Notes: generated by a model from the letters alone, not told the origin. DNA of 63,952 nucleotides, filler included, from a bacterium (GCA_024278215.1; 7 parts of 7 records of this genome joined end to end with filler, not necessarily neighbours in it), one strand, 5' to 3'; positions 5,635 through 55,423 are shown, counted from the first letter of the whole stretch. Made by a program: numbers and translations.

Positions 5635-8211
5635 ATGAGATCGACATTTTTCGGAATCGAAACAATGAGACGCGCGCTCTTGAGCCAGCGCACTGTAATG
5701 GACACAGTCGGGCACAATATAGCAAACGCAAGCACAAAGGGCTACAGCAGGCAGAGAGTTTCCCTGACACCCACAGGCGCGTTCCCTTACCCCGGCACCA
5801 ACCGGGTGTACGGTGCGGGCCAGATCGGCACTGGAGTTATCGTCGAGTCGATCTCGCGAGTGCGCGATCAATTCGTCGACGGACAGGTGCGAGTCGGCCT
5901 GACCTCCACGGCGCAGCTTAACGTCGAAAAAAGCACTCTCAGCCAGATCGAAAATGTCTTTATGGAACCGGCGACCACACAGGGCTTCAGCGGCGCGATG
6001 GGTGACTTCTTCGACGCATGGCAGGAAATCAGCAAGTATCCCGACAACACCGCCGCACGCAACCAGGTCATTGCCATGGGACAGAATATGACCGATGTCA
6101 TCAGAAATATCGACCAGACTCTGCGCGACATCAGGGTCGATCTCAACGGCCAGATACAAAAAGATGTCGCGATCGTCAATGGAATATTAAAAGACATAGC
6201 GAGCCTTACCCCGGAAATCGCCAAAGTATTCACTCATGGAATGTCACCCAACGATCTGCTCGACAAACGCGACCTGCTGATCGACGAATTATCCCAGTAT
6301 GTTAATGTCGATGTCCAGGACAGCGAATACCTCGGCGGACTCGCCATCAGTATCGGTGGTCGTGAGTTGATGCGCAACGATACTGTATACGACCTTACTC
6401 TCGAACCCAACTGGGACCATCCGTCACAAAATACAAAAACCCCTTACATGAACGACGTGTCACAGTCCGACTTTTACATGCTCTCGCAATTCAGCGCGGG
6501 CGAACTCAAAGGCGCCATAAACTCCCGCGACGTCATCCTCCCCGAAGTACAGAGCAAATTCGAGGAAGTTGTCAGCACCTTCGTCAATTCGGTCAATAAT
6601 GTGCACAGCCAGGGACTCGGCATCTCTGTCGAGGATTACAGCACATTCGGTGCCGGCACTACAGCGAAGATCAGCAATAACGCCAATTACGCCCAGATCG
6701 CCGCCACCGATACACAATATTTCTCCGTAGGAGAACAGATTCAGATCGTCGACCCGACCGACGACTCAAAAACTATCACCGTCACAATAACCGACATACA
6801 GACCGACGGCACAGGCAACGGACGGCTCTACTTCGACAATATCGGCTCACTTGTAAAAACCGAAGAACAGGCCGCGGGTGTCTACACGGATGTTACTTTC
6901 GATATTGACGCCGGCGCAGAAATCAGGAAACTTGTCGTGGACAAATATAACTTCTTCGAGACCAACGAGCTTCTCTCGAGAAACCTCGTCGGAGACACAA
7001 GCCCCGATTATTACAACCAGATGACAAGCACGATCAAATTCCCTCCTGGCGTAAGCCTCGACACCACCATCGGCGAACTCGAAAACATTCTCGGCGTCCA
7101 GATCGCCCCCTCCAACGCCACAAACGCTCCAAGGCTCAGACTCGACAACAACGCCCTCACAGACACCATTGACGACAACATGACACTCGAAGAAGTTTTC
7201 CGCAGAATCCAGAAAGTACATCCACTCACAAACGACGGCAATGCTTTCGGAATCAAATTCGACGAAGTAAACCATAACGTCGTGTTAACCGGCGTCACCT
7301 ATAACGCGCTCGCAGAACTTGGCGGTGAGAACGGCAGCGAGTGCAACCTGTTCAGAATACTCGGCTTTGAAGGCCAGAACCTGTCGAGCTATGCGCTTCA
7401 GGAAGGAACACAACTCAACACTACGCTCGGCGACCTCGGCATAAGCAATGGCTGGATTCAGATAGACAACACGCTCATTCAAATAGACAACTCCGTAACA
7501 CTCCAGGCCGGCATCAACGACATAAACGCCGCACTGAACAATACAGTGGAAGCAAAATCGTACAACACACAGATTTTCTTCGACGAAGGCACGCGACGCC
7601 TGCGAATCGTATCGGATCACGCCTTTTCCGCCGACACCCCCGACCCGTCGATATTCCCGGCAACACCACCGAACGCCGCATCAAACTTCCTCACAGTCAC
7701 CGGCCTCCAACAACAGGATTCCGCGCCGACCTATTCAAAAAAACAATCTCTCATTTCCACAACAACATCCGACATCGGCGCCCGCCTCTCTGTCAATTCC
7801 GCCCTCATCGAAGATGTCAATAGAATAGCTTCGGCGTCATCTTACGCAGGCATACCGGGCGACAACTCGATTGCCCTCGAAATAGCCTCCCTCAAAAACG
7901 CAATGCTGATGGGCGATTCATCCACGGGCAGACTCGGTTCACCGACTCTGACAATCGACGATTCCTATAACGACATAATCGCCGATGTCGGCGTGAAATC
8001 GGCAACAACCCAGAACTCCGCCGACGCCGCCGACAAGTTCCTCGAATATTATCAGAACAGGCAGCAGGAAGTATCAGGCGTGTCGCTGGACGAGGAAATG
8101 ACAATACTCATCGAAGCCCAGCATTCCTTTCAGGCAGCATCAAGGATGATCAATGTCGTTGACGAAATGCTAAGCACTGTGATCAACAATATGGGACTGG
8201 CGGGCAGATAA
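5635..8211 (+). CDS. flgK: Hook-associated protein FlgK (858 aa, long central insert)
   Basis: GHNIANASTKGYSRQRV; SGVSLDEEM...QHSFQAASRMI. Confidence 0.95.
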   Translation: MRSTFFGIETMRRALLSQRTVMDTVGHNIANASTKGYSRQRVSLTPTGAFPYPGTNRVYGAGQIGTGVIVESISRVRDQFVDGQVRVGLTSTAQLNVEKSTLSQIENVFMEPATTQGFSGAMGDFFDAWQEISKYPDNTAARNQVIAMGQNMTDVIRNIDQTLRDIRVDLNGQIQKDVAIVNGILKDIASLTPEIAKVFTHGMSPNDLLDKRDLLIDELSQYVNVDVQDSEYLGGLAISIGGRELMRNDTVYDLTLEPNWDHPSQNTKTPYMNDVSQSDFYMLSQFSAGELKGAINSRDVILPEVQSKFEEVVSTFVNSVNNVHSQGLGISVEDYSTFGAGTTAKISNNANYAQIAATDTQYFSVGEQIQIVDPTDDSKTITVTITDIQTDGTGNGRLYFDNIGSLVKTEEQAAGVYTDVTFDIDAGAEIRKLVVDKYNFFETNELLSRNLVGDTSPDYYNQMTSTIKFPPGVSLDTTIGELENILGVQIAPSNATNAPRLRLDNNALTDTIDDNMTLEEVFRRIQKVHPLTNDGNAFGIKFDEVNHNVVLTGVTYNALAELGGENGSECNLFRILGFEGQNLSSYALQEGTQLNTTLGDLGISNGWIQIDNTLIQIDNSVTLQAGINDINAALNNTVEAKSYNTQIFFDEGTRRLRIVSDHAFSADTPDPSIFPATPPNAASNFLTVTGLQQQDSAPTYSKKQSLISTTTSDIGARLSVNSALIEDVNRIASASSYAGIPGDNSIALEIASLKNAMLMGDSSTGRLGSPTLTIDDSYNDIIADVGVKSATTQNSADAADKFLEYYQNRQQEVSGVSLDEEMTILIEAQHSFQAASRMINVVDEMLSTVINNMGLAGR

Positions 8212-8213
8212 AG

Positions 8214-8262
8214 GAGCCAATTGCAGCCAGCCACAGCAAAATCGGAATTTTGCAATCGGCAC
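8214..8262 (-). mobile_element. 49-bp internally deleted derivative of MITE family A
   Basis: GAGCCAATTGCAGCC...AATTTTGCAATCGGCAC, flanked by AAAG on both sides. Confidence 0.8.
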
Positions 8263-8267
8263 AAAGG

Positions 8268-8294
8268 TAAAGTAATCGGCAAATATGCCGATAT
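8268..8294 (+). promoter_or_regulatory. Sigma28 (FliA/SigD) promoter for flgL
   Basis: TAAA-N15-GCCGATAT exact consensus match, ending 36 nt before the flgL start. Confidence 0.8.
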
Positions 8295-8330
8295 ATAATA
8301 TAGATAAAAACATTCGAATGGAGTGGGCTT

Positions 8331-9560
8331 ATGCTTACAGGAGGATACTCAAGAGTAACAAACACGATGATGACGAATACTTTTATTCGCGACATCCATC
8401 GCAATCTCAGCACAATAGATAAATTACAACGACAAATATCCACAGGCAAGAAAATACAATATCCTTCCGACGATCCTGTCGGGGCAGACCGCGCGCTGGA
8501 CTATCGCCAGACAGTAAACGAACTTGACCAGTATTCAAAAAATGTCGACGATGCGAACACGCTTGCCAGCAATATCGACACAGTGTTCCAGCACATGGAA
8601 GACCTCCTGCTGCGAGTTCGTGACCTGGCGGTCAGAGCATCCAATGAAGCGCCTCAAAACCAGGCGAACAGAGACACCATCGCCGACGAAATCAACAGCC
8701 TTCTCAGCGCAATGGTCTCCCAGGCCAACCAGAAATTCGACGGCAAATATCTTTTCTCAGGCCTGAAAACCGGCACGACACCTTTCGAGGCAAAAACCAG
8801 CATCACATTCAACTATACGACAGGTGCAGGCGGCAACATGGAGATAGAGATGCCATCTACCACCATAGAAGGCACCACAACACAATCCGATGCCATCACC
8901 GACACCAACTCGGTCAAAGCGGTTCTCGTCAACGGGCAAAACTATGTAACGGCACTCGGCGGCTCGTACACTGTGGACCCGACAACAAATATCATCACGC
9001 TGGCCGGCGGCCCTGCATTAAACGATTCAGACGTGGTCGAGCTGAGATTCGACAAAGTCGTCTCTGTCGATTACAACGGCGACATGGCAACCAGAGAAGT
9101 GGAAATCAGCGAAGGCACAACAGTGAAAATGTCCTACGCCGGTGCCGTGTCCAACGATGCAAACACCCAATCAGTATTCGGAAAGTACAGCGGCGAAGGC
9201 ACCGACATGGCATCGGTCGAAGCATTCCAGAAAATGATGCAACTTAGAGACAATATTTACAAATACGGCAACGGCGGAACAATAGATGATATCATGAAGG
9301 GCATCGACGACATCGACGACGTCAGGGAGACGATAACCAACGCGCGGTCCGAACAGGGTGGTCGCGTCAACCGGCTCGAACTTGCAAAAAACCGTATAGA
9401 ACAAATGAACATTTACACATCAAAAATACTTTCAGACCGTGAAAATGTCGACATGGCCGAGGCAATCAGCGAACTCGTACTTGCCCAGAATATCTATCAG
9501 GCATCCCTCCAGTCCGGAGCAAAAATTATTCAGACAACACTACTTGACTTTTTACGGTAA
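8331..9560 (+). CDS. flgL: Hook-associated protein FlgL
   Basis: QISTGKKIQYPSDDPV; DGKYLFSG; YQASLQSGAKIIQTTLLDFLR. Confidence 0.95.
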   Translation: MLTGGYSRVTNTMMTNTFIRDIHRNLSTIDKLQRQISTGKKIQYPSDDPVGADRALDYRQTVNELDQYSKNVDDANTLASNIDTVFQHMEDLLLRVRDLAVRASNEAPQNQANRDTIADEINSLLSAMVSQANQKFDGKYLFSGLKTGTTPFEAKTSITFNYTTGAGGNMEIEMPSTTIEGTTTQSDAITDTNSVKAVLVNGQNYVTALGGSYTVDPTTNIITLAGGPALNDSDVVELRFDKVVSVDYNGDMATREVEISEGTTVKMSYAGAVSNDANTQSVFGKYSGEGTDMASVEAFQKMMQLRDNIYKYGNGGTIDDIMKGIDDIDDVRETITNARSEQGGRVNRLELAKNRIEQMNIYTSKILSDRENVDMAEAISELVLAQNIYQASLQSGAKIIQTTLLDFLR

Positions 9561-9727
9561 TGGAGTATAATAGGATACAATACTAATATTAAAGCCACAG
9601 GCTGTACGTGAAGTAAGCGTACTTATGTCAATCCCTCACAGGTTTCACCCAATCGACAACAAAGTCAAATTTTAAGGTATGCGGCTTTAGGATATAGCCG
9701 TATTGATATTTTTCAAGGAGGATACCT

Positions 9728-10204
9728 TTGAAGGTAACCACCACTCGATTTGGTGAGCTTGAGGTAGCAGACGAAGAAATATTTGAACTTACTTCACCGC
9801 TGCCCGGATTCCCGGAAACAATACATTTTTTCTTGATCCAGAAGGACAAGATAGCGCCCTTTCAGTGGTTGCAATCCGTTGAAGAGGCAAATTTAACTTT
9901 TGTAGTAGTAGAACCATATCATTTTTTTCACGACTATTATCCTAAAATCAGCGCTTTCGACGCCGGTGAGATCAAAGCGGAACGAGCAGAGGAAATAAGA
10001 CTATTCGTAATTGTCGTTCTGCCGGAAGATATGACAAAAATGACGGCAAACCTGCGAGGACCACTGATCATCAATCCAAAACAAGGCAAAATCAAACAGG
10101 TTTTTATCGAAACAGACAGATGGACTGTCAGAGAATCAATTGTAGAAGCCATAAAAAGAAAAGAACAGGCAACAATAGAGAAAAATAAGCAGGAAAAAGC
10201 ATAG
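9728..10204 (+). CDS. fliW: Flagellar assembly factor FliW
   Basis: TTRFG, PFQWLQS and MTANLRGPLIIN motifs; TTG start with AGGAGG RBS. Confidence 0.93.
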   Translation: MKVTTTRFGELEVADEEIFELTSPLPGFPETIHFFLIQKDKIAPFQWLQSVEEANLTFVVVEPYHFFHDYYPKISAFDAGEIKAERAEEIRLFVIVVLPEDMTKMTANLRGPLIINPKQGKIKQVFIETDRWTVRESIVEAIKRKEQATIEKNKQEKA

Positions 10205-10240
10205 GAAAACAGTCGTTTATGAGCCAGGAGGGCCGGGAGC

Positions 10241-10486
10241 TTGCTCGTTCTATCACGAAAACTTGAAGAAAGTATAATGATCGGCGACGAAATAGAAATC
10301 AAAGTCATAGCCGTTCACGGAGAAACCGTAAAACTCGGGATCACTGCACCGAGGAGCATACCGGTACACAGAAAAGAAGTCTATGTGGAAATAGAAAAGG
10401 AAAACATCAGAGCAGCCGCGATGGGTGCGACAGTAGACAGAATAGATCTGCTGGAACACATTTTCAAAGAAGACAGGAAGCTCTGA
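10241..10486 (+). CDS. csrA: Carbon storage regulator CsrA
   Basis: [22 protein letters not shown]...[19 protein letters not shown]. Confidence 0.96.
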
Positions 10487-10781
10487 ACCGTTAAATAGAT
10501 TTAATAAACTCGACGCGGGAGTTATAAGAGAAACTCCAGGCGGCATGAACCTTGAAAACTGCATACCACAATTATTTAAATGACAGGTATTTAATTATTT
10601 ATCTCACTACAGCAGGTAAGACTGCGCATCCGAAATATTAAAACAAACGGAGCGCGGACTTAACCATAACAGCCGGCTTCACCCGGATTCGGGGAAGACC
10701 GGAAAAGCCTGAACAGTTTGAAACCTTATACGGGGTTAGGAGGTGAAACGGCTACCTGTACTCAAACATAGTAAGGCGAAT

Positions 10782-10798
10782 GAGCTAAGGAATAGCTC
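10782..10798 (+). promoter_or_regulatory. Putative CsrA-binding hairpin in the flagellin leader
   Basis: Stem GAGCTA/TAGCTC with an AGGAA loop; a second GGA site overlaps the SD (ACAGGGAGGAG). Confidence 0.6.
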
Positions 10799-10851
10799 GC
10801 AGTAAGTTTCTGGTGGCTCCAGAAACACGAAAAACAGGGAGGAGATAAACC

Positions 10852-11712
10852 ATGTCAATTACTAGGATTAATACCAATGTCGAAGCCTTAATGGCTGGCA
10901 ACAACCTGAGGAAACTCGAGTTCAATATGAACCGGACGATGAATCGTCTTTCAACCGGTCTGCGGATCAACACCGCGGCTGATGATCCGTCCGGAATGGG
11001 AATTGCGAATTCCTTCAAATCTCAGCTTTCCGGCATAAGAGCGGCGACACAGAACGCCGAAGATACTCTCTCGATGATGAACATCGTCGATACTACTCTA
11101 TCAGAAATTTCGGACATTATGATCCGGATGAGAGATCTGGCCGTTCGCGCCGCAACGGACGCGACAGTCACAACAACGCAACGTGCCAACATGGAGTCTG
11201 AAGTAGTAAGTCTCAAAGCGGAGATCACACGCAAACAGGGCGCAATTTCGTTTAACTCGAAGGTTCTGTTCAACGGCTCATTGAGCGGTGGTACGGCTAC
11301 AGCGCAGGTTCAACTCGGGCCGGACAACATTGCTGCACAAAGGTTCAGCATAAACATCCCGACTCTGACGGCCACAGGTATTGGCGGTGGAATGAGCTTT
11401 AACAACGGCATGCACATCAGTCAGTCCACAAGTGCTCAAGTCGCCATCGATATCATGAACAGCGCCATCTCCAGTCTCGGTACGACAATGACCGCGATCG
11501 GCTCGATGGAACAGGAGATCGAACGCAAGATCACCGAACTCCAGGCCACAGAAGTCAACACTGCTGCCGCCCTCTCCCGCGTACAAGATGCGGATATGGC
11601 CGGCGAAATCACAGAATTCGCCAAGCAGCAGATCATGTCTCAGGCTGCCACAGCTATGATAGCACAGGCAAATGCACAGCCCCAGTCTATACTCACGTTA
11701 CTTGGAGCATAA
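10852..11712 (+). CDS. fliC: Flagellin (short, 286 aa)
   Basis: RINTNV...RLSTGLRINTAADDPSG; SRVQDADMAGE...AQANAQPQSILTLL. Confidence 0.95.
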   Translation: MSITRINTNVEALMAGNNLRKLEFNMNRTMNRLSTGLRINTAADDPSGMGIANSFKSQLSGIRAATQNAEDTLSMMNIVDTTLSEISDIMIRMRDLAVRAATDATVTTTQRANMESEVVSLKAEITRKQGAISFNSKVLFNGSLSGGTATAQVQLGPDNIAAQRFSINIPTLTATGIGGGMSFNNGMHISQSTSAQVAIDIMNSAISSLGTTMTAIGSMEQEIERKITELQATEVNTAAALSRVQDADMAGEITEFAKQQIMSQAATAMIAQANAQPQSILTLLGA

Positions 11713-11811
11713 ACTGGGCGAATATATCCTGCTGGCATTTTGCTGTACATACTATCATTAATCGTCAGTTTGGATTAAAAGCCTAGGGTGTTTCGTTCTA
11801 TATAATCACAC

Positions 11812-11845
11812 AAAAAGCCCTCCCACGGCGGGAGGGTTTTTTTTT
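11812..11845. terminator. Intrinsic, probably bidirectional terminator
   Basis: AAAAA-GCCCTCCC-ACGGC-GGGAGGGT-T run between convergent genes. Confidence 0.85.
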
Positions 11846-11896
11846 GCACTTTTTTCTTGACTATTTGCTAAACGACATTTGTTGCGTGGAAATATA

Positions 11897-14800
11897 TCAG
11901 AAGTCGGCCCTGAATGTGCTTTCAAACAGGTGGCCGGTGTAATCACGGTCGTTGTCATCCGCTTTTCGGAATCTCGACATCCTGTAAAACAGGTTCAGTG
12001 AAATAATTTCAGTTAGTTTCAACTCGGAGCCGAGTTCGAGCGCCGAGTTGTCTTCGTTCAGGCTTCCGCTCCTGGAGACCTTCTGAAATGAAAACCACTG
12101 CGACAATTTTTCGCTAGGGATTCTGCCAATGCGTGTATTTATGGTATTTGTGTCATAACCGGAGGACCTCGACGATGAGTACGACTCGTTTTTCAGTTGC
12201 GCCGAGTAGTTCCATACGGGGCTCGGATTGTAACCGGCGACAATATTCCAGTTTTTGTTCGACGATGTGCTGTTTCCACTCAGATTGAACGTGTCCCGGT
12301 CGCTCCTGACGAGTGTGAAGGTGAGGTGATAGGGTCTGCCCGGCGGTCTGTAGTCGAATTTATAACGCTTTATTTTACTCTCGGTGCGCGAGTCGTCGCC
12401 GGTGAAAGAATCAGACACTGTAAATATCGGCATAAAAGTGAGGGCTTTGGTAAGGGCATAGCCGAATGTGTATGTCTCGGTTTTCGAACCGGACGACGGG
12501 CCTGTGATGCTTGGCCGGTCCTGTTGACTGTAACTGTATGAAAGCGCCTGTACTCTTCCGGTCGGCCTGGTGCTGATGGAAACTCTTGACGAATGAATAA
12601 CGCGATCATTCACAGCCGGTCTCGTGTCGCTCGTGTTCTGATCGTCGATGTCCACTTTCACCATGACCATTTCGTGCGGTCGCCAGCCGACACCTATCTT
12701 CTGCGACCTGTTCGTATTCGTATATGTCTCACCGCCGCTCGCCGTTTCGGTTTTACTTGTATCGAACATTGTTGTGAGCTTGAGATTCTTCGTCGGGCTG
12801 TAGTTGAATCCGATCTTTCTGCTCGTGTTTTTGCGCCCTGTATTTGTCTTCACATTATCGGTCTGTTTCATGCCGGTATAACCGATAGTCAGGTCGGCTT
12901 TTTTCAGCATCGGCACAGGGATCGCCGCATTGAGCCCTTTCTTTGTTTCCGATGTATCCGCCCTGCGAGGCGAATAGTCGTCGAACCGGTCTCTCGTTTC
13001 ATAAGTTACCGCAAGCGTTTTGAAGAAGGAATTGCTGAACGTCAGTTTATGTTTCTGCTGTTTTGATCTTGTATTGTGAAGTTCGAAAAGGTCCTGCGCG
13101 GTATCGACATCGACATAATCGGACTTGAGTGTCAGGTTGCTGAGAATCTTCCGGCTGATCCCGATAGTGAGTTTACCTGTTTCGAGATTGCTCTCGCCAC
13201 CGATGGGCGTAAAGAATGTGTCGCCGTTCCACACGCTGAGGTTCACGCTGGTTTTACTTCCACTGTATGCCGCGTTCATCTGAACGACATTCCCGCTCTC
13301 GACACCGATAAACGGGGGATAATACTGGTAGTCCGCGAGAATCACTGTGCCGGCCGGAATCAGAACCCGCATCGTCACCCTGCCCTGCGTGACCTCCAGA
13401 CTATAATCTGTGTTGAGTCTCAGGACAGAGTCGTCGGCAAGCCTGTCGTCGAAATACAGGATCACCGTGCCTGGCACAATATCCTGCTGACCGAGGTCGA
13501 ATGTGCAGGCCGCGGTATTGCCGGCCTCGGGAGTGCAGTCCAGGTCCGCCGACGCCGCATCACGAACCACTATATTCAAGTTGTTAATCGGTTTGGCCGA
13601 TATATCCGCATCGCTTCTTGCCGCCTCCAGCGCCACTTTCACTTTACCGCCGGGCTTAAACTCCATCCTGAAATCATCTACCGTATGATCGTAATCAGAT
13701 TCAAGCAGCGTGTCCGACGGATAAGAATACGCGTCGATACGGAGGTAATCATAAGTCTGGAATTCCGTGCTCGCGGCGTCGATGAACTCGACTCTGTTAA
13801 AATCCTCGTCGACTATGTAGTCAACACCGCGCGTTTTCTGAACACATAAGTTCAGGTCCTCGTCGGTACAGAAATAAACTTTTTCGGAGCCGTAATAAAT
13901 CGTACCGCTCATCTTTGTTGAATCGGGATAGGCGTAAGGTTGTCCGGATTCGTCATGAAAGAGGTTCACTTTCGTGTTGTATTCAGTGACTTCGCTCGGA
14001 TAGTAGAAATAAGTGATCCTGAAGGCGTCGCTTGCAGAGGATGTCGGCTCGGCGAGGAGAAACTCGAAGTTTGCATAATATTCCGCGATTTTTGCATTGC
14101 CGAGCAGAAAATTCGTGTCTCCCAACTCGGATAACATGTTATAATCCTGATTCGCTTCCAGCGTCACCCCGTTCTCGGTAATTATCTCGGAATCCTTTAC
14201 TATCAGGTCGCCGCTTTCGAGCCCGACAGACAATATCCTGGAGGAATCGAGCCCCGGTATCTCCTCCACAACTTTTTCACGCAGTTTCTGTGTCGACCTG
14301 TTCGCTGCCTTCACAAGATGCGAATAACCGTAAGACCACTTTCCGCTCCTCGTCTTCCTGTCGACGGCAAGACCTTTCAAGTCGCCCTCACTCAGCGAAC
14401 CGGTCAATCGTTGTTCATAAGTAATCGTTACAATATCGGTCGGCCCGAGAATATCGAGAAAAGAAATCTCACCGAGAAACTCGTCAAGAATATATTCATT
14501 AGCCGGAAGCACCCTGTCGTTGAGTTTGACGGCAGCTTTGTCTGCTATAATGTCTCTTGCGTTCAGATCATACGGGCCCTTGATATTCCTTCCCGTGAAG
14601 GAAGTTGTGCGCGTCTGGCTCTCGGACTTCGACATGAGAAACATAATATTGGTAAGGTCCGTGCTGTAATCGACCTGAAATCCGTTTGTCTTCTTTGCAA
14701 AAGGAGATAGTCTTCCGCCTTCAAACTTCGCCGTAAAGTCTCCATAAGTCGCACCGTAGTGACTGTGCTCCATGCGAAACATCATGTCACGATCCTGTCT

Positions 14801-18525: not shown

Positions 18526-18625
18526 NNNNNNNNNNNNNNNNNNNNNNNNNNNNNNNNNNNNNNNNNNNNTTAATTAATTAANNNNNNNNNNNNNNNNNNN
18601 NNNNNNNNNNNNNNNNNNNNNNNNN
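18526..18625. other. Artificial contig linker
   Basis: N44-TTAATTAATTAA-N44. Confidence 0.98.
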
Positions 18626-22091: not shown

Positions 22092-22140
22092 GAGCCAATT
22101 GCAAAATTCTGATTCGGCTGCGGTCGGCTGCAATTGGCCA
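22092..22140 (+). mobile_element. 49-bp derivative of MITE family A
   Basis: GAGCCAATTGCAAAATTCTGATTCGGCTGCGGTCGGCTGCAATTGGCCA; same structure as the 8214 copy, opposite orientation. Confidence 0.8.
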
Positions 22141-22169
22141 TAGCCCGCATATTTCACAAATGCGGGCTA
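22141..22169. repeat. Short palindromic repeat family E (CCCGCATATTTCACCNNTGCGGG)
   Basis: TAGCCCGCAT-ATTTCACAA-ATGCGGGCTA; related copies near 33099, 37159, 40621, 45968 and 61043. Confidence 0.75.
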
Positions 22170-22991
22170 TTCATTTTCTTTTTCGCGCAGCAGACGCGCC
22201 CGGCCCTCTTCGAAAAAAGTTTCAGCGAATTCGGAATCCCACGTGCGATCCTCGAACGACCTGTTTTCGACAAGTTTAAGAAAGTTGTCGATCTCGGCGA
22301 AATAGGAGCCGTATATGTGAAAGCTGTCCGAGACATCCACATAGCGTCCCACAACAACTTTTTGATCCATTTCTTTCGAAATTCTTTCCGCAACAATGCG
22401 CATCAGGTCCGTGAGCGCGAACATATTCATAAACGCGGCCTTATAGGCGTCTCGTGAACGCCAGTGGGTGTTCATGTTCAGAACCAGCGTGTTGTCCTCA
22501 CCCTCGGCGAGTCGGAACCACAGGCGCTGGAGACACGGCGGGTCATCAGTGGGCGTATCGAGTATCGGGTTCCAGGTGATCGCCTGTGCGCGCCTTGTGA
22601 TTATCGAGTTTGAAAGTCGCTTCACAGCATACAGAATCTGGTCGACGTGCTCGCCGCCCATTTCATAATCAAAAAGTCTTTTATGATATGTATATGTCCA
22701 TTTGCCGGCTTCAGGGTCTATCCAGTGATCGTGCACACCGTCCACAACTTCCTGGCGATAGACTTCCAGTTCCTCGAGTCCGGCGGGGAACGCCCTGTGT
22801 ATTCTCGGCTCCGCGAACGGCTCCTCGACAACGATTGTCATCGTGCAGTCGCGGCTGGGCGGGTCGCCCCTGTGATCATATTCCGTATGGATCGGGATTC
22901 CTTTTTCCCATGTCTCCAGTACTGACTTTTCCCACGCCTCGGGCATTGTCCTGCCCGTGACTTGCAGTACTGGTATATTCCCTTTTTTCAT
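22167..22991 (-). CDS. Thymidylate synthase-family protein (archaeal-type ThyA-like)
   Basis: YTYHKRL, TRRAQAITW, PPCLQ (catalytic Cys), WRSRDAYKAAFMN, SFHIY. Confidence 0.8.
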   Translation of the reverse strand: MKKGNIPVLQVTGRTMPEAWEKSVLETWEKGIPIHTEYDHRGDPPSRDCTMTIVVEEPFAEPRIHRAFPAGLEELEVYRQEVVDGVHDHWIDPEAGKWTYTYHKRLFDYEMGGEHVDQILYAVKRLSNSIITRRAQAITWNPILDTPTDDPPCLQRLWFRLAEGEDNTLVLNMNTHWRSRDAYKAAFMNMFALTDLMRIVAERISKEMDQKVVVGRYVDVSDSFHIYGSYFAEIDNFLKLVENRSFEDRTWDSEFAETFFEEGRARLLREKENE

Positions 22992-35738: not shown

Positions 35739-35918
35739 GAGCCAATTGCAAAATTCTGATTCTGCTGTGGTCGGCTGCTATTGTCCATAGCTGCGTTGTC
35801 GGCGCGAAATCGTCCTCGACGTACTCTACAAAAGTACGCCTGCGAGGATTTTACACCTCCGCCTTACTCTGAACAATTTCGCTCGACCTCGCTATGAACA
35901 TAATTTTGCAATTGGCTC
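35739..35918 (+). mobile_element. MITE family A, full length
   Basis: 17-bp TIRs GAGCCAATTGCAAAATT; TSD TTAT. Confidence 0.93.
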
Positions 35919-36556: not shown

Positions 36557-36835
36557 ATGGAGAAAAACATGTATCTTGAAGATGTGATCGGGAGCAAAAC
36601 AAAGGTCAGAATACTCTATACGTTATTTTCGAATGAGAACAGGGCGTTTTTTGAGAAAGAGCTTGCAATAACATGCGGTTCTTCTATTTCCGAGGTCAAC
36701 AGGCAGATAGTGTCGCTTGTGGAATTCGGGTTGATTCATCATTACCGGGAAGGCCGCCTGAAGTTTTACAGGATAAATCCCGCACATTTTCTTTATAAGC
36801 CTTTGAAGGATTTATTTCTGGTGTCACTTGACTGA
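36557..36835 (+). CDS. Small winged-HTH protein
   Basis: GSKTKVRIL...ELAITCGSSISEVNRQIVSLVEFGLI...YRIN. Confidence 0.75.
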   Translation: MEKNMYLEDVIGSKTKVRILYTLFSNENRAFFEKELAITCGSSISEVNRQIVSLVEFGLIHHYREGRLKFYRINPAHFLYKPLKDLFLVSLD

Positions 36836-37011
36836 GCCAATTGCAAAATTATGATTCTGCTGCGGTCGGCTGCTATAGTCCATAACTGCGTTGTTGGTAT
36901 AGAATCGTCCTCGACGTACTCTACAAGTACGCCTGCGAGGATTTTACACCTCCGCCTTGCTCTGAACAATTTCGCTCGACCTCGCTACGAGCATAATTTT
37001 GCAATTGGCTC
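36834..37011 (+). mobile_element. MITE family A, full length
   Basis: TIRs intact; TSD GACT; overlaps the upstream gene's TGA. Confidence 0.93.
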
Positions 37012-40784: not shown

Positions 40785-40960
40785 GAGCCAATTGCAAATT
40801 ATGTTCGTAGCGAGGTCGAGCGAAATTGTTCAGAGCAAGGCGGAGGCATAAAATCCTCGCAGGCGTACTTGTAGAGTACGTCGAGATGATTTTGTGCCGA
40901 CAACGCGGCAATGGACAATAGCAGCCGACCGCAGCAGAATCAGAATTTTGCAATTGGTTC
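40785..40960 (-). mobile_element. MITE family A, full length
   Basis: TIRs present; flanks AAAG/AAGG. Confidence 0.9.
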
Positions 40961-43077: not shown

Positions 43078-43173
43078 AGGAAACCCTTAGTTTTTTCATA
43101 CAGCGAGCCGATTGCCCTGTTGGCTCGCGCATAGATACAGGCATATGATATAAGAGCATATAATATATGGAGG

Positions 43174-45495: not shown

Positions 45496-45530
45496 GTAAC
45501 TACCTCCGATTCACATTTCTCTCTGGTGAG

Positions 45531-45708
45531 GAGCCGATTGGAAAATTCTGAATCGCCAGCGGTCGCCTGCAATGTCAACAGCAGCGTTGTCGGCACAAAA
45601 CCTTACTCAACGTACTCTGCGAGTATACCTGCGGAGATTTAACACTTCCGCCTTATTTTTGAACAATTTCGCTCGACCTCGCCTCGAACATGATTTTGCA
45701 ATCGCCTC
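45531..45708 (+). mobile_element. MITE family A, degenerate copy
   Basis: Colinear with the family consensus but with many substitutions; no clear TSD. Confidence 0.8.
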
Positions 45709-47543: not shown

Positions 47544-47722
47544 GAGCCAATTGCAAAATTATGATTCTGCTGTGGTCGGTTGCTATTGTCCATAGCTGCG
47601 TTGTCGGCAGAAAATCGTCCTCGACGTACTCTACAAGTACGCCTGCGGGGATTTCGCATCTCCGCCTTGCTTCGGAACAATTTCGCTCGACCTCGCTACG
47701 AATATAATTTCGCAATTGGCTC
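47544..47722 (+). mobile_element. MITE family A, full length
   Basis: TIRs present; TSD CTTT. Confidence 0.93.
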
Positions 47723-47767
47723 CTTTTTCTTGACGTTGTAATATCACTTTGTTAGAATTGCTATTCC

Positions 47768-48646: not shown

Positions 48647-48649
48647 GCG

Positions 48650-48955
48650 CAATACTGTTGAGCCAATTGAAAAATTCTGATTCGGCTGCGGTAGGCTGCA
48701 ATTGTCCATAGCTGCGTTGTCGGCACAAAATCATCCTCAACGTACTCCACGAGTACGCCTGTGGTGATTTTGCACCTCCGCCTTGCTTCAGAATAATTTC
48801 GTTCGACCTCGCTTCGAACATAATTTTGCAATTAGCTCTGTTCACTTAATGCTTTTACGACAGGCGAGACGCCTGTTGTACTGACGCGATGATATGAGAT
48901 ACAGTAGCGCAGGCGTCCCGCCTGTGCCGGTCATGACCTTATGTGAAAGGTATTG
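48650..48955. mobile_element. Family D-like element carrying an inverted REP-like doublet, interrupted by MITE A
   Basis: Removing MITE A and one TSD restores CAATACTGTTCACTTAA, which pairs 14/17 with TTATGTGAAAGGTATTG; inner ACAGGCGAGACGCCTGTTGTAC and GTAGCGCAGGCGTCCCGCCTGTG. Confidence 0.65.
48660..48838 (+). mobile_element. MITE family A, full length
   Basis: TIRs present; TSD TGTT. Confidence 0.93.
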
Positions 48956-49046
48956 GATGCAGGCTTAGTTTTCTGATAGAATGCTATATGTACTAATCGT
49001 GATACTAAAAAGATTATTTCAAGTTTCTTAACAACTGGAGAAGCAA

Positions 49047-51884
49047 GTGACGCCAAAATCGGCCGACCTCAAGCGTACAGCAGTCAAACAGAGTCTGCTC
49101 GATGTCGATCTCATGCTCAAGGAAGCAAACGAACATGCTTCACTTGGAATAAATGATGTTGCGCTGTCGCTTTACCAGAAAGCGCTGAAAAGCCTGCGGG
49201 AGCGTTTTGCAGGCGATGTGAAAAACATACCGGTCGATGTGCTTGTCATAAGATTCCGTGTTCTGATTCAACTTTCAAAGCTGTTTTCCGCCTCAGGCCG
49301 ACATGAAGAAGCGTTGAAATTCGCAGGCGATGCCAACCAGCTTGCTTCAATTGCCCTTAAAGATGAAGTCGAACTTTTACTCATTTCATGCACCGAACTT
49401 ACAAGGCTTTACATCGTTGCATCCGACCTGAACTCCGCAAAGAAAATCGTGGCCCGTGCAAACAAAGCCCCAAAGGGCGAAGACACCGGACTGTGCCAGG
49501 CTTTAAACTCGCTGGGCACAGGCAGGCTCTTCTTCGCATTCAAAAAATATGACATGGCGATGAATATCATCGAAAAAGGCTTGCGAGCGCTCCGGAAACC
49601 AAAAACCAGAGATCATATTGAAGTTAAAACAGACTTGTACAGTCTATACGTCGCATCCCTGAAAGCAGCGGGAGAAAAAGATAAAGCAGAAACTGTTCGC
49701 GACGAAGCAGTCGAGTTGTTGAACAAGAGCGGCAGAATAGCAAGAGACCGCGAAGAGGGTACATTCGATGCGATTTACTACTATACGAAAGCGCTGAAGG
49801 TACTTTCTACGGCACCGGATTCAGAGTTGAAAATAGCAAGGATATCTGAAGTCAACTTGAATCTTGCTGATATTCTCATAGTGAGGGGCCTGTGGTATGT
49901 TGCGCGAAAATTATTAAAAGAAACATCCGATTTCTATGTGGACAGCACGGATCATGATCCGAAAAATCGCATACTTTGCTGGGTAGGTCTCGGACAACTT
50001 TATATCGAGATGAAGCGCTACGAAAAGGCTGAGGATATTCTTTATAAATCCATATCATTTGCAGAAAACAGCAAGAATATATATTGCTACTGTCTGGCGA
50101 ATCATTACCTTGGTTTGTGTATATCCAAGATGGGTGACGACGAAAAAGGAGTAGAAAAGTTTGAAGAAGCCCTTGATTTCCTGCAGGACGTGTCGGACAG
50201 CCGCGAAAAATTCAGCCTGATGGCACGCATCTACAATCAGCTGGGGTTCATAGAGGCAAAAAAACAGAATATCGAGAAAGCCGTCGAGTATCTGAAAAAC
50301 AGCGTCGAGTTGCTTCGTCCATATACAAGGGACCTCGCGCTGGGCGAAGCATACCGGATGCTCGGTGAAATATATTCGCAACGACAACAATACATGCAGA
50401 GTGAACGCACCCTGAAAATTTCACTGGAAATATATGAAAAGAAAAACGCCCGGATCGAAGTGGCTCGAGTTTATAGAAGTATTGGAATCAACTTCCTGAG
50501 CCGGGGCGAATTGGATAAAGCGACATTTTTCCTTGATGAAGCGATAGAGATTTTTGAAAAACTCGGTCTCGATTCGGACTTGCCCAAACTCTACAGCAAC
50601 AAAGCCCAAGTATGTATTATGAAGGAAGATTACATCGCGGCCGAAGACCTTTCCAAGAAAGATTTCGAGATAGCGAAAAAATTCGACAACAAACATTCGC
50701 TTGCTTTTTCCTATTACCACCTTGGCCGCATCAGGCGATTGCTCAAGAGAACACATTCCGCCGAGGATTTCCTGAAAAGAAGCCTGGCGCTTTTCGAGGA
50801 AGTTAATAACATGGATATGGCGGGCCATGTGATGATCGAACTCGCGCTGTGCGCCTCTGAACGAAAAGATGTGAAATCTGCAACGGACTATTGCGCGAAA
50901 ACACAGAAAATTTTTAAACGCGACAAGCGGAATTCTCCCGAACTCGCCAAATTGCTTGTGACTCGCGGCATCGTCCTTAGAACCGCAGACAGAAGACAGA
51001 TAGCCAGACGTTGTTTCGAAGACGCACTCAGAATGTATGATAAGCTCGAGATGGTAGTGATCGACCTTGCTGAAGCACACTTCGAATTCGCGATGTACTG
51101 GAAGGGCATAAACGACAGAAAAACCGCCACCGAACATATGAGAAGCGCCATCGATATCGCCGAAAAACTCGGCCTCGGTCGTAAAGTCGATTCCTACCTT
51201 CAGGAACTCAACGCGTTCAACCCGGAAGAAGGATCAAAGCTGCGGCTGTCGCAACTCATGGACAAGTCCGCTGTCGAGCAGTTCACCAGCAGGAAAGTTA
51301 AAAGCGGGCAGCTTGTGGTAGAAAAGAAACACCTGACGATCCTCTTTACCGACATACGTAGTTTCACGATGATTTCCGAAACTCTGTCACTCGATGACAT
51401 GACTTCCTTCCTCAACGACTTCTACAGGAATGTAACGCAGGTAGTAATGAAATTCAACGGGCAGATCAACAAATTCATCGGTGACGCGGCGATGGCGATA
51501 TTCAACATGGACGGCCAACTCGACGATCATCCCGTGTGGGCGGTACGCGCGGCGCTGGACCTCGTGAGGGCAATGGAAGAGACAAATCACATTAGATCAA
51601 AAAAAGGCGAGATGCCGATACATGTGGGAATCGGCATCAACACGGGAGAAGTGCTGCTCGGCGCGTTCGGCTCGGGGCTCAGGCTCGATTACACTGCCAT
51701 CGGCGACAATGTTAATATCGCCTCCAGGATTCAGGGCCAGGCCGGACCAGGCGAAATCGTCATAAGCGACGCGACACTTGAACATGTAAAGGATATTGTC
51801 ACTGTCGAAGACCTCGGAGAAAAACCCCTCAAAGGAAAAGGACAGCCGCTGCGGCTCCACAAAGTGATGTGCCTCAAGGAATGA
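49047..51884 (+). CDS. Soluble TPR-repeat class III adenylate cyclase
   Basis: ~700 aa of TPR-like helices; ILFTDIRSFT, KFIGDAAM, DYTAIGDNVNIASRIQ. Confidence 0.9.
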   Translation: MTPKSADLKRTAVKQSLLDVDLMLKEANEHASLGINDVALSLYQKALKSLRERFAGDVKNIPVDVLVIRFRVLIQLSKLFSASGRHEEALKFAGDANQLASIALKDEVELLLISCTELTRLYIVASDLNSAKKIVARANKAPKGEDTGLCQALNSLGTGRLFFAFKKYDMAMNIIEKGLRALRKPKTRDHIEVKTDLYSLYVASLKAAGEKDKAETVRDEAVELLNKSGRIARDREEGTFDAIYYYTKALKVLSTAPDSELKIARISEVNLNLADILIVRGLWYVARKLLKETSDFYVDSTDHDPKNRILCWVGLGQLYIEMKRYEKAEDILYKSISFAENSKNIYCYCLANHYLGLCISKMGDDEKGVEKFEEALDFLQDVSDSREKFSLMARIYNQLGFIEAKKQNIEKAVEYLKNSVELLRPYTRDLALGEAYRMLGEIYSQRQQYMQSERTLKISLEIYEKKNARIEVARVYRSIGINFLSRGELDKATFFLDEAIEIFEKLGLDSDLPKLYSNKAQVCIMKEDYIAAEDLSKKDFEIAKKFDNKHSLAFSYYHLGRIRRLLKRTHSAEDFLKRSLALFEEVNNMDMAGHVMIELALCASERKDVKSATDYCAKTQKIFKRDKRNSPELAKLLVTRGIVLRTADRRQIARRCFEDALRMYDKLEMVVIDLAEAHFEFAMYWKGINDRKTATEHMRSAIDIAEKLGLGRKVDSYLQELNAFNPEEGSKLRLSQLMDKSAVEQFTSRKVKSGQLVVEKKHLTILFTDIRSFTMISETLSLDDMTSFLNDFYRNVTQVVMKFNGQINKFIGDAAMAIFNMDGQLDDHPVWAVRAALDLVRAMEETNHIRSKKGEMPIHVGIGINTGEVLLGAFGSGLRLDYTAIGDNVNIASRIQGQAGPGEIVISDATLEHVKDIVTVEDLGEKPLKGKGQPLRLHKVMCLKE

Positions 51885-52024
51885 TTCGTGTGTAATAAGT
51901 CATTTTCAAAAACAATGTTTTTGTCAAAGTCGGCCAAGATGTTCTGAAATGCAGAACGCACGTTCGTTATAGTCGATCATTTTTGGTTGACATTTGTCAT
52001 CTTCGACTTATTATGCACGAATCA
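51882..52024 (+). mobile_element. MITE family B (143 bp)
   Basis: 20-bp TIR TGATTCGTGTGTAATAAGTC / GACTTATTATGCACGAATCA; inverted copy at 52711. Confidence 0.88.
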
Positions 52025-52057
52025 AGAAATGAGCGCTTGTTTACATTCGCTGACAGG

Positions 52058-52200
52058 TGTTATAAACGCTGGCCGAAATTTGCCCCCCTGGAGGTGAAGC
52101 GCTGAAGTAAATTTGACCCCACTGTGAAAAATTTAATCCTCGAATATGGAAATGAAGGAAAGTGCTATGTTCGGGGAGGATCGGAATGATTGCAGTGGGA
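52058..52200 (+). mobile_element. Probable IS21-family left end and istA start, cut by contig end
   Basis: TG-initiated end with repeated AAATTTG(C/A)CCCC motifs; GGAGG RBS and ATG at 52186. Confidence 0.55.
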
Positions 52201-52300
52201 NNNNNNNNNNNNNNNNNNNNNNNNNNNNNNNNNNNNNNNNNNNNTTAATTAATTAANNNNNNNNNNNNNNNNNNNNNNNNNNNNNNNNNNNNNNNNNNNN
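52201..52300. other. Artificial contig linker
   Basis: N44-TTAATTAATTAA-N44. Confidence 0.98.
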
Positions 52301-52475
52301 CAGTTGCAAAATTATGTTCGAAGCGAGGTCGAGCGAAATTGGACTAAAGCAAAGCGGATGTGCAAAATCCCCGCAGGCGTACTTGTAGAGTACGTCGAGG
52401 AAGATTTTGTGCCGACAATGCAGCTGTTGACAATTGCAGCCAACCGCAGCCGAATCAGAATTTTGCAATTGGCTC
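52301..52475 (-). mobile_element. MITE family A at contig start
   Basis: Nearly full length; ends TTTTGCAATTGGCTC. Confidence 0.9.
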
Positions 52476-52710
52476 GCCTGTAATACAAGGCGCGGCAAGT
52501 GAGTGGTGAGGGAGCATACTGCTGGTATGTGAACGATCCCGAATCGCCGCCGCAACACAGTAGAACAGGCGTTATCCCGATTTTCCGGCGGAAAGAAAAC
52601 ACCTCACCGCTTTGCAGCCTCCAGCCGGGCGATCCACATTGTAACAATAATGATCACGCAATGAAATGTTTCCTGTGAACTTTCGGGGGATTTTATTTTA
52701 CAACAGAAAT

Positions 52711-52853
52711 TGATTCGTGTGTAATAAGTCGAAGATGACAATTGTCAACCAACAATGATCGACTATAACGAACGTGCGTTCAGCATTTCAAAGCATCTTG
52801 ACCGACTTTGACAAAAACATTGTTTTTGAAAATGACTTATTACGCACGAATCA
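52711..52853 (-). mobile_element. MITE family B (143 bp)
   Basis: Reverse complement of 51882-52024 with a few substitutions. Confidence 0.88.
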
Positions 52854-53170
52854 AGATTCCGTTTGCGCATCAAGCAAATCGCCGTCTGTCACCCCTCCTC
52901 CACTCATCAGCACCACGGGTATGCGGCCACCCCCGGTATGCGTGCGTCGAATGACCCTCGAGGTCTCGACACCCGACATGCCCGGGAGCGCCACATCCGT
53001 TAGTACTATGTCCGGCCCTTCTTCTTTCACACGCCTGAGCGCCTTCTTCACATCACCCTCTTTGATAATTATGAAATGTTCGGCCAGTACGCGTGCCAGT
53101 ACTCCAAGCAGCTTTTCATCGTCTTCTATTTCATTTTTCCCTGTTTGCTTTACAGCTACTTTATCCCCTC
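52851..53170 (-). pseudogene. Truncated receiver-domain gene
   Basis: IEDDEKLL...PDIVLTDVALPGMSG...IPVVLMSG; lacks the C-terminal KP motif; stop supplied by MITE B; no in-frame start upstream of the acidic motif. Confidence 0.65.
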
Positions 53171-53366
53171 TGTTCCATCGTTCATTTCATATTATGATTC
53201 CAGCCTGCGCCTGTGTCTGTGACGCTGCTCACTATCGGCATGTGATATGTGTCACAAACAGGTGTGACTTATGTCAATCGGCAACAAATAGAAAAGCCGC
53301 AACCTGTTGTGGCCGGGTGTTTTTGTGTAGAATTCTGGAAGCGACATGCCGGAAAGGAAAAACGCG

Positions 53367-53993
53367 ATGAGCGAACTGATACTTGTAAGACATGGAGAGA
53401 CAGTCGGAGAATCGGCGTTGAGGCTGTATGGAAGGACGGATATCGAGATGAGCGACCTGGGGCGCAGGCAGATGGCGGCGGTGCGCGACGCACTTGCGGA
53501 CATCGAGTTCGCTTATGCGGCATCGAGTCCGCTGCGGCGCTCGCGCGAGGCGGCGCGCATAGTGATTGGAGAGCGGAAAACGACCGTAGATATTGTCGGC
53601 GATTTCACAGAGATAGACTTCGGCCAATGGGAAGGATGGTCGCTGGCGGAAGCAGCGGAGAAAGACCCTGAGAACCACTGCGAGTGGCGGAAATCCGGGG
53701 TGGAGTTCAGGTTTCCCGGCGGAGACATGAAAAGAGAGTTTTTCCAGCGAGTAGCATGCACGGCGGTCGAGATATTCGGGCAAGCGCCCCGCCCAGCGCT
53801 TGCCGTACTGCACAAGGGCGTAATAAAAGGCATACTCGCCGGCCTGCTGGGAAAGCCGGTTGCCGATTTCACAGAGTACAAAATCGAACTCGGCAGCATC
53901 CACCGGCTTACACTATCACAAACAGGATGGAATCTCATCTCCGAGAACGAAACCAGGCACCTTGCAGAATTCAGGATACCCTCCTCGGCATGA
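53367..53993 (+). CDS. Histidine phosphatase family protein
   Basis: LVRHGET, SSPLRRS, EIDFGQWEG, FPGG, VLHKGVI. Confidence 0.92.
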   Translation: MSELILVRHGETVGESALRLYGRTDIEMSDLGRRQMAAVRDALADIEFAYAASSPLRRSREAARIVIGERKTTVDIVGDFTEIDFGQWEGWSLAEAAEKDPENHCEWRKSGVEFRFPGGDMKREFFQRVACTAVEIFGQAPRPALAVLHKGVIKGILAGLLGKPVADFTEYKIELGSIHRLTLSQTGWNLISENETRHLAEFRIPSSA

Positions 53994-54095
53994 TACAAGT
54001 AGTGGTTGAAGAAAACCAGCTCCTACCGGAATGCGCGCAAATCGCCGCTATCCCGGGAGAAGGAAACAGGGAGTCCGGAGGTTTCCGCCCAACCA

Positions 54096-55049
54096 CTACC
54101 TTGCAACCGCTCCGTTGCTGTTGCGGATTTTGCGTTCGATTTCCAGCATAGTCCTGTCCAGTTGCTTATCGGATTTTCTATTTGCTTCGACCCGTTTGGC
54201 GGTGTTGCATATAGAAGACGGGCCGACGGCGAACAGGTCGCCGAGTTCCTCGAGCGGTATCGTGGTGACATTCCTGCAAAGATAAATAGCGATATTGCGC
54301 GGAATATTCGGTTTTTTTCTGTTATTTGTAATCGATTCCACAGAAACGCTGTAGTAGGCGGCGATGGCGTCGATAACTTTTGTCGGGCTTATAGTTGCAA
54401 GCGGAGGGCGTTCCGATTCCTTTTTCACAAACTCGATAAAATCCGGTCCGCCTATGATCCGCTGTTTCAGAAGCATTTTCTCCATGGCGGTATAATCCAG
54501 ATTGATGCCCGATTCGACATAGTCCTTATATTTTCGTTTGCACCTGTTAGGCGACCCGCTGAACTTGCCGAGTACATCTCTTGTAAAAACCGCCGGTATC
54601 TGGTCGCCGGGCAGGGCATATTTGTAGTGGCTGGTCCAGCGGTAGCGGTCGGGGTGGTGCGCCAGGCCCGCATAAACAGGAATCAGGTGAATATGGCGGG
54701 TGATCTTCAACAGGTATCGCGATTTGTCCACCACGGGACTCTTATACCTGCCCTTGAAAAGGCGGCCCGAAATCCTGTGGCGCGTATTGATATAAGCCAT
54801 ATAATGACTGTTTATATACTGTAAAGCTTTTGTCAGGTTGCCCATCGGCGTTTCGAGTAACAGCCTGTAGCTGTCGTTCATCAGGCAGAATGCGTGCAGT
54901 TTCAGCGAATATCTTTTAATACCGTAATCCAGTATCTGGAGAAATCTGTTTCTGTCTATGTCATCCTGAAAAATCCTTACGTCCGGCATTGCCTCAACAT
55001 ATATATGATAAAGAGCGCCCGGGTATTCAATTCTTGTGGGTCTCGGCAC
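54096..55049 (-). CDS. RAYT/Y1 transposase-like protein with DnaA C-terminal-like HTH; catalytic residues substituted
   Basis: PRPTRIEYPGALYH, HAFCLM, GRLFKGRYKS, YRWTS; C-terminal RNIAIYLCR...LEELGDLF; GTG start with GGAGG RBS. Confidence 0.85.
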   Translation of the reverse strand: MPRPTRIEYPGALYHIYVEAMPDVRIFQDDIDRNRFLQILDYGIKRYSLKLHAFCLMNDSYRLLLETPMGNLTKALQYINSHYMAYINTRHRISGRLFKGRYKSPVVDKSRYLLKITRHIHLIPVYAGLAHHPDRYRWTSHYKYALPGDQIPAVFTRDVLGKFSGSPNRCKRKYKDYVESGINLDYTAMEKMLLKQRIIGGPDFIEFVKKESERPPLATISPTKVIDAIAAYYSVSVESITNNRKKPNIPRNIAIYLCRNVTTIPLEELGDLFAVGPSSICNTAKRVEANRKSDKQLDRTMLEIERKIRNSNGAVAR

Positions 55050-55181
55050 CTCTGTGTAACCTCCCTGCAAATCAAACTTCGCCTGGTTTTTCCCTGCCCC
55101 GCCGAAGTATTCGTATCCCTGCCGGATTCTTTATGAAACCGACCTTCGGATGCTGCAATCCCAGCATTCCGTTTCTCACAT

Positions 55182-55195
55182 GAGCCAATTGCCTC
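55182..55195. mobile_element. 14-bp fully collapsed MITE A footprint
   Basis: ACAT-GAGCCAATTGCCTC-ACAT. Confidence 0.7.
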
Positions 55196-55423
55196 ACATT
55201 ATCTTCTGTTATCGATTCGCCCGTTATTATCCGCCGGGTTTGGAATTCACATCTGAAACAAGTCTGAAAACAGGCATTGTCCTGCTTTTTTATCACCCAT
55301 TCCTATCGATTCGAGCGGTTTTGTCATTCATGCTTGCCGACGTTGTTAAATGCACGTGGGGATCGGACTGCGGCGAATCAACAAAACCAAATTATAGTGT
55401 CTGAAAACGGCATGTCAATGCTT

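Follow-up and report, generated by a model that had tools for sequence, protein, structure and literature searches.

How do discrete short forms arise in a family of small dispersed repeats, and are they products of decay or elements in their own right? This question is raised by a stretch of 63,952 bases (hereafter the window) from the draft genome GCA_024278215.1, which consists of seven contigs with spacers of N between them (at 18526, 23942, 45230, 52201, 57476, and 62069) and carries several copies of one MITE (miniature inverted-repeat transposable element), here called MITE A. The genome belongs to a small uncultured phylum and comprises 207 contigs with 4.55 Mb, 51.4% G+C, and 95% completeness. 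In the first-pass annotation of the window it had been proposed that full copies collapse at a fixed hexamer, CAATTG, to forms of 49 and 14 bp which retain their target-site duplications (TSDs). Both length classes were recovered genome-wide with junctions at short direct repeats, and they were probably made by deletion between these repeats, helped by the foldback of the element and independent of a transposase.

For the genome-wide search, a profile was built from six complete window copies (176–180 bp). It yielded 734 strand-wise matches, which are reduced to 440 loci once double-strand hits on the near-palindromic element are removed. Of these loci, 211 are full length and internal to contigs, with lengths of 178 bp (n = 106) and 179 bp (n = 66) and a median identity to the consensus of 92.7% (n = 211). 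The inverted ends are 16 bp long (GAGCCAATTGCAAAAT on the left and ATTTTGCAATTGGCTC on the right), and the exact 16-mer end occurs 329 times in this genome. Chance is excluded as their source, since GAGCCAATTG was found 23 times in the window at up to one mismatch compared with 4.9 expected. The palindrome CAATTG, which had been described as part of each end, is the terminal hexamer in 159 of the 211 left ends and 135 of the 211 right ends. A third, internal CAATTG had been noted in the copies at 48660, 52301, and 57316; it is present there and in 81 of the 211 full copies genome-wide, and 98 of the 211 carry CTATTG at this left-arm site.

The TSD is 4 bp long, perfect in 126 of the 211 full copies and matching at three of four bases in a further 39. 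From the 126 full insertions with a perfect TSD, a palindromic target of the form C|WWWW|G was derived, with a C at position −1, an A/T-rich TSD and a G at +1; beyond the TSD, an A at −4 and a T at +4 are preferred. As DNA, the copy at 63758 is predicted to form a foldback whose terminal stem measures 18 bp (−39.1 kcal/mol, z −6.4), and in a second DNA fold (−33.4 kcal/mol, z −3.9) the ends are likewise paired. A search of Rfam with a 1.6-kb stretch containing two MITE A copies gave no match. With its inverted ends, a TSD of fixed length and small non-coding dispersed copies, MITE A fits a bacterial MITE. The assembly breaks at this repeat: several contig ends of the window lie inside copies, and genome-wide the family reaches the end of a contig at 84 of its 440 loci. 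The window copies at 52301, 57316, and 18626 are therefore incomplete because contig ends cut them, and not for biological reasons.

The length spectrum was obtained by pairing left and right 10-mers with at most one mismatch each, giving 248 elements. It has sharp peaks, with 158 end-pairs at 178/179 bp, 17 at 48–50 bp, and 6 at 14 bp; the other lengths are mostly singletons. Perfect TSDs are found in 8 of the 17 forms of 48–50 bp and in 4 of the 6 of 14 bp, one of the latter being a two-mismatch site without a TSD. The junctions recur as well. Twelve forms of exactly 49 bp have their breakpoints at 37–45/166–174 of the consensus and four 14-mers at 4–10/168–174, and the remaining short forms show scattered junctions with 0–5 bp of microhomology.

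These recurrent breakpoints coincide with the longest direct repeats of the consensus, namely the 8-bp TGCAATTG at 38/167 and the 6-bp CAATTG at 5/169. Loss of the sequence between the 8-bp pair gives the 49-bp product, and loss between the terminal 6-bp pair gives the 14-bp product. The ends carry CAATTG as a direct repeat too, because the hexamer is palindromic and reads the same on both strands of the inverted ends. In a young subfamily with CAATTGGCAACAGC at the internal site, the longer repeat is extended to at least 10 bp (TGCAATTGGC). Mirror products which keep the right arm, for which the repeat measures only 5 bp, are rare; a 52-bp form at C42:618 and a 57-bp form at C142:49993 were identified (loci are given as contig and position), both with a perfect TSD. 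Two further products were searched for in the genome at up to two mismatches and gave no match, the 143-bp product of a CAATTG 5/40 junction and the 122-bp product of a CAAAAT 11/67 junction. Equally long repeats elsewhere in the element are thus unused, and repeat length alone cannot explain the pattern. The working repeats bracket most or all of the foldback.

The window itself holds one example of each product. The 49-bp form at 8214 is real, as had been claimed, and its AAAG duplication is perfect. It ends in CGATTG on the left and CAATTG on the right, and its breakpoint range, 37–45/166–174 of the consensus, is the 8-bp repeat TGCAATTG. The 14-mer at 55182, which had been recognized by its flanking ACAT, is likewise confirmed; the two ACAT copies are perfect, and the palindrome is one base off.

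Genome-wide, the exact 14-bp product GAGCCAATTGGCTC was found at four sites, compared with about 0.017 expected under uniform composition. At one mismatch a single site was found, the window copy at 55182, with 0.71 expected. At two mismatches there is no excess (4 seen, 13.9 expected); uniform composition itself over-predicts at three mismatches, with 69 sites seen and 166.5 expected. The many unrecognized scars which had been predicted across the genome are therefore not there to be seen, and five are detectable. Their flanks are AATG, ACAT, CACT, and TATT, each identical on both sides, and for the fifth TATA/TATT, which agree at three of four bases. The TSD enrichment suggested as a check was clear, with four of five scars having a perfect TSD as against none of 73 control sites with two to three mismatches to the 14-mer. 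Empty sites were rebuilt by removing the 14-mer and one TSD copy, and were scored with a target matrix from the 126 full insertions against 5000 random positions. They rank at the 94.8th, 91.0th (window scar), 97.4th, 99.5th, and 99.9th percentile and thus fit the target preference of the family.

The genome contains 283 distinct 14-bp palindromes, among which GAGCCAATTGGCTC ranks second by copy number. The only commoner one, GACAACATGTTGTC with 10 copies, was examined as a scar and rejected, as it is the core of another repeat; the remaining 14-bp palindromes with at least three copies are the cores of other hairpin repeats and were dismissed likewise. The repeat family around GACAACATGTTGTC has the core GC-GACAACATGTTGTC-GCTTACGGCGCGATAAGGG (e.g., C35:3616 and C93:13738), and two smaller palindrome-centered repeats have three copies each.

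A natural control is provided by copies with the ends CGATTG...CAATCG, whose pairing as inverted repeats is intact while the 6-bp direct repeat between them is lost. No 14-mer of this type was found in the genome, although it is the most-deleted class. Since these ends lack the 6-bp repeat and have no 14-mer, the product depends on the direct repeat. A 20-mer at C91:3854 (GAGCCGATTGCAACCGGCTC) fits a deletion between the copies of the other palindrome of the end, TTGCAA (8/166).

The CGATTG/CAATCG type accounts for 8 of the 211 full copies, compared with 8 of 21 forms of 48–50 bp (Fisher p = 9e-6), and for 15 of the 31 short forms of other lengths. Judged by mismatches (27.9 vs. 13.1) and by perfect TSDs (1 of 8 vs. 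111 of 174), the full copies of this type are older. Full-length ancestors of this type existed, as forms of 55, 63, and 64 bp retain right-arm sequence. Among elements with both ends, about three quarters of the old type have lost their insides, compared with about one tenth of the young type. The same gradient is seen within positions 1–39, where 49-bp forms carry 5.6 mismatches and full copies 2.6 (Mann–Whitney p = 2.7e-5). The short forms are derived mainly from an older, more diverged stratum, in line with time-dependent decay, and the 14-bp scars come only from younger, CAATTG-ended copies.

In the course of events which we favor, the CAATTG within the 16-bp inverted ends would serve as a 6-bp direct repeat whose two members face each other at the foot of the foldback, and copies with the third, internal CAATTG would offer the 8-bp direct repeat (38 and 167) in addition. 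The DNA between two repeats may then occasionally be lost when replication slips, or single strands anneal, across the extruded hairpin, for which we infer that no transposase is needed. Deletion between the 8-bp pair would produce the 49-bp form and deletion between the terminal pair GAGCCAATTGGCTC, with the original 4-bp TSD kept in both. This would be ordinary deletional decay in which the element's own sequence sets the hot spots and older copies are more decayed.

Several observations weigh against this course of events. The window scar is an imperfect palindrome, which would fit a fusion of left positions 1–11 to the last three bases without microhomology as well as a later G-to-C change. 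In the main foldback, the two repeats whose deletion yields the 49-bp form are not placed opposite one another. Furthermore, the direction from full to short is deduced within one genome, full and collapsed alleles of the same locus having never been seen. Finally, many of the 49-bp forms have markers in common (a G at position 6, altered bases at positions 14 and 28), for which a common 49-bp ancestor would also account.

Such an ancestor is the core of a different explanation, in which a single deletion created a mini-MITE of 49 bp which then spread by transposition, now or in the past. The 49-bp forms have kept perfect 12-bp inverted ends, at least 8 of the 17 copies of 48–50 bp have a perfect TSD, and the markers are enriched, with G at position 6 in 64% vs. 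11% of full copies, a change at position 14 in 50% vs. 4%, and C at position 28 in 36%; the excess of CGATTG/CAATCG ends described above points in the same direction. However, no two copies of the 49-bp form are close. Over 39 positions, the mean nearest-neighbor distance among 14 copies is 5.0, compared with 2.18 (97.5th percentile 3.72) when 14 full copies are drawn at random, and for every 49-bp form a full copy can be found that is no farther away than its nearest fellow of 49 bp. Moreover, the markers are also found in right-arm-containing forms of 45, 46, 55, 63, and 64 bp and in old full copies, so that they mark the old full-length stratum and not a 49-bp lineage. The mobility of the 49-bp form, which the first-pass annotation had offered as an alternative, is thus doubtful; there is no positive sign of recent amplification, and an ancient burst may have occurred.

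Two enzymatic routes would explain the 14-mers by the palindrome itself. In one of them, a transposase makes a staggered cut inside the ends, and the self-complementary CAATTG overhangs anneal and are ligated without end-joining. The product, a TSD followed by seven bases of each end and the second TSD, resembles what cut-and-paste excision leaves behind, the four perfect scars do not differ in sequence, and the CGATTG-ended type, whose overhangs would be unable to pair, has no 14-mer. This reading is nevertheless quite improbable, as it leaves the forms of 49, 52, 57, 36, 39, and 53 bp unexplained, all of which have junctions at short direct repeats, and as five scars for about 300 or more copies would require nearly all donor sites to be restored. 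A transposase with these ends was not found in the assembly, and we know of no bacterial DDE transposase that cuts 7–10 bases inside its ends. If it were true, the palindromic core would be a resealing device, and the scars would be fossil evidence of cut-and-paste transposition with excisions countable in any genome. The other route invokes a recombinase or a restriction enzyme of the MunI/MfeI type, which recognizes C^AATTG, cutting two sites whose compatible ends rejoin. CAATTG is part of all recurrent junctions, and rejoined AATT overhangs would yield exactly 14 and 49 bp. Against this, there is no avoidance of CAATTG in the sequence outside MITEs (793 sites compared with 719 expected, a ratio of 1.10 and rank 57 among the 64 palindromic hexamers), the 143-bp product of a left terminal and an internal cut was never seen, and forms with the junction hexamers CAATCG, CAACTG, or CGATCG exist, so that this route is scarcely credible. 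Of the fixed-hexamer deletion originally proposed, the deletion between 6- and 8-bp direct repeats with retained TSDs has therefore held up, and site-specific resolution has not.

A parent insertion sequence with MITE A ends was not found in this assembly, which lacks contigs shorter than 2.8 kb. Pairs of ends 260–5000 bp apart number 11; the two inspected by eye, without a family search, contain no transposase-like open reading frame (ORF). On contig C175, a 1.8-kb end pair with TTAT flanks encloses an ORF of 513 residues, which by eye and without a family search is not transposase-like. A Pfam search gave two sub-threshold remnants of DDE_Tnp_1_6 and none of DUF772. C-terminal remnants of an IS1182-like transposase are located at C188:8571-8816 and C62:33073-33216. 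They were rejected as the parent, since their full-length relatives, present in two further genomes of this phylum, carry unrelated ends, TTGATTCCGGCGCAAAAA. The latter is a dispersed repeat in this genome too, unrelated to the MITE A ends.

The phylum comparison covered 13 species genomes, this one included. Outside this genome, the 16-mer end was found as one solo end in one relative and not in the other 11. Among these 13 genomes, the MITE A family is therefore essentially confined to this one. In 40 relatives, only the flanking coding parts match at 65–82% DNA identity, which is too distant for an alignment of the intergenic regions. One scar lies downstream of an SPFH/stomatin-like gene (C124:4909-6067), and on its upstream side a full MITE separates it from an NfeD-like gene; old and current insertions thus flank one conserved operon. 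For the SPFH protein, the best metagenome match has 78% and the best genome match, a metagenome-assembled genome, 76% protein identity, and no MITE end was present in 80 metagenome loci matching this protein. Neither collection yielded a conspecific contig, and a search for sequencing runs with window positions 52480-57310 listed none.

The coordinates of the window features and of the genome-wide scars are listed in Table 1.

Table 1. MITE A copies, short forms and associated repeats in the window, and loci of the 14-bp scars in the genome.
Feature	Position	Strand	Remark
14-bp near-palindromic scar GAGCCAATTGCCTC	55182..55195		seven bases per MITE end; one G-to-C difference from perfect palindrome
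TSD ACAT, left copy	55178..55181		
TSD ACAT, right copy	55196..55199		
49-bp form	8214..8262	-	left arm 1-45 joined to last 4 bases of right end; 7 mismatches to model
TSD AAAG of 8214 form	left 8210..8213, right 8263-8266		
MITE A left arm 1-54 only	22092..22145	+	without TSD (TGGT vs. TAGC)
h2-type hairpin repeat ATAGCCCGCATATTTCACAAATGCGGGCTAT	22140..22170	+	fused to arm at ATAGC
Full copy	35739..35918	+	180 bp, TSD TTAT, internal CTATTG
Full copy	36834..37011	+	178 bp, TSD GACT
Full copy	40785..40960	-	176 bp, flanks AAAG/AAGG
Full copy	47544..47722	+	179 bp, TSD CTTT
Full copy	48660..48838	+	TSD TGTT; CAATTG-type sites: terminal, internal 48700, right terminal degraded to CAATTA
Full copy	63758..63936	+	179 bp, flanks CTTA/TTTA
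Old full copy, CGATTG/CAATCG type	45531..45708	+	33 mismatches to consensus
Copy cut by contig start	52301..52475	-	internal CAATTG 52431, terminal CAATTG 52466
Copy cut by contig end	57316..57475	-	terminal CAATTG 57320, internal CAATTG 57450
Copy cut by contig start	18626..18766	-	
14-bp scar loci	C37:19974; C59:2882; C78:28391; C124:4909; C189:29778		C59:2882 = window 55182

The copy at 22092 had been taken for a second 49-bp collapse product, and it had to be discarded as such. It has no TSD, its arm runs on to position 54, and it is fused to a separate hairpin repeat in a design present at 12 loci. Past CAATTG it reads G-CCATAGC, as in the TCCATAGC of the full element with one T-to-G change, followed by the hairpin ATAGCCCGCATATTTCACAAATGCGGGCTAT. 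At the 12 loci, the left arm 1-53/54 is directly followed by one of two hairpin types, and in at least four other loci a hairpin is followed by MITE A positions 49–178. The fusion point ATAGC (49–53) is retained in both kinds of fusion (e.g., C186:90295-90640, C44:7638-7990, and C84:33080-33400). The hairpins are abundant repeat families of their own, with 155 and 287 strand-wise matches, and a repeat about 215 bp long also has the two types, CCGGATTTCTCACAAAGAAATCCGG and CCGCATATTTCACCAATGCGGG, as its ends. The fusions may have arisen by targeted insertion of a hairpin element or by recombination. Inside-out MITE halves 42–46 kb apart on contigs C84 and C160 were considered as a large integrated element and dropped, as the segments share only small repeats.

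Additionally, a 22-bp sequence at window positions 43105-43126 (GAGCCGATTGCCCTGTTGGCTC), flanked by CAGC and GCGC, has MITE-like outer bases on both sides; either chance or an old, decayed remnant may account for it. Among the 6-bp palindromes, CATATG (0.11), AGATCT (0.18), ATGCAT (0.22), CTGCAG (0.27), and GGATCC (0.30) are strongly avoided outside MITEs (observed/expected), which suggests past or present restriction-modification systems with such sites.

Deletions of this kind have counterparts in well-studied systems, with those of Tn10 and of Escherichia coli palindromes nearest to MITE A. The remnant of nearly precise Tn10 excision is 50 bp long. In 1981, Foster et al. and Egner and Berg reportedly described both precise excision, of Tn5 and Tn10, and the nearly precise kind, of Tn10. 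As proposed for MITE A, deletion in Tn10 takes place between short direct repeats inside the inverted repeats and leaves a short palindromic remnant together with the target duplication. The inverted repeats stimulate it, as they presumably do in MITE A. In Tn10, however, the process was measured, whereas here it is deduced from genome fossils of a 179-bp MITE with a 14-bp remnant, in which the direct repeat exists only through the palindrome in the end. In Escherichia coli, palindromes are said to stimulate deletion between direct repeats, by slipped mispairing or by SbcCD-dependent single-strand annealing (the work of Bzymek and Lovett in 2001). There, as in MITE A, the length of the repeats and the hairpin between them determine the hot spot; MITE A differs in being known from its sequence and in that the 49-bp deletion takes the hairpin together with a 33-base tail, not a clean palindrome.

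The Correia elements of Neisseria occur in long and short forms, the short ones being usually treated as subfamilies. They resemble MITE A in having discrete length classes in one family which share both ends and the target duplication, while in MITE A the junctions lie at direct repeats and the short forms lack an amplification signal. The footprints of the P element and of Tc1/mariner elements, which are cut-and-paste transposons of eukaryotes, depend on transposase and end-joining and are heterogeneous. What remains at the donor site is likewise the TSD with a few bases from either terminus. The scars of MITE A, in contrast, are uniform, and its second product of 49 bp would need another explanation. 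TSD-flanked palindromic scars of prokaryotic MITEs were not found described in the literature searched, including a 2024 review of prokaryotic MITEs (PMC10969869) searched by term, which is not proof of their absence. On the class of mechanism, the first-pass annotation was largely right, and the deletions of MITE A show a known kind of decay in a clean form.

If the end of a transposon contains a palindrome, the element as a whole is automatically bracketed by a direct repeat, and self-deletion gives a predictable and recognizable product consisting of a TSD, a 14-bp palindrome and the second TSD. In this genome the effect is small, as some 300 full copies compare with about 20 of the 49-bp stubs and with five scars. 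For annotation it follows as a caution that isolated perfect palindromes with 4-bp flanking repeats may be transposon remnants and not operator sites. The scars offer an easy means of locating former MITE sites and of estimating the loss of MITEs relative to their gain in bacteria, from which scars of this kind are seldom reported.

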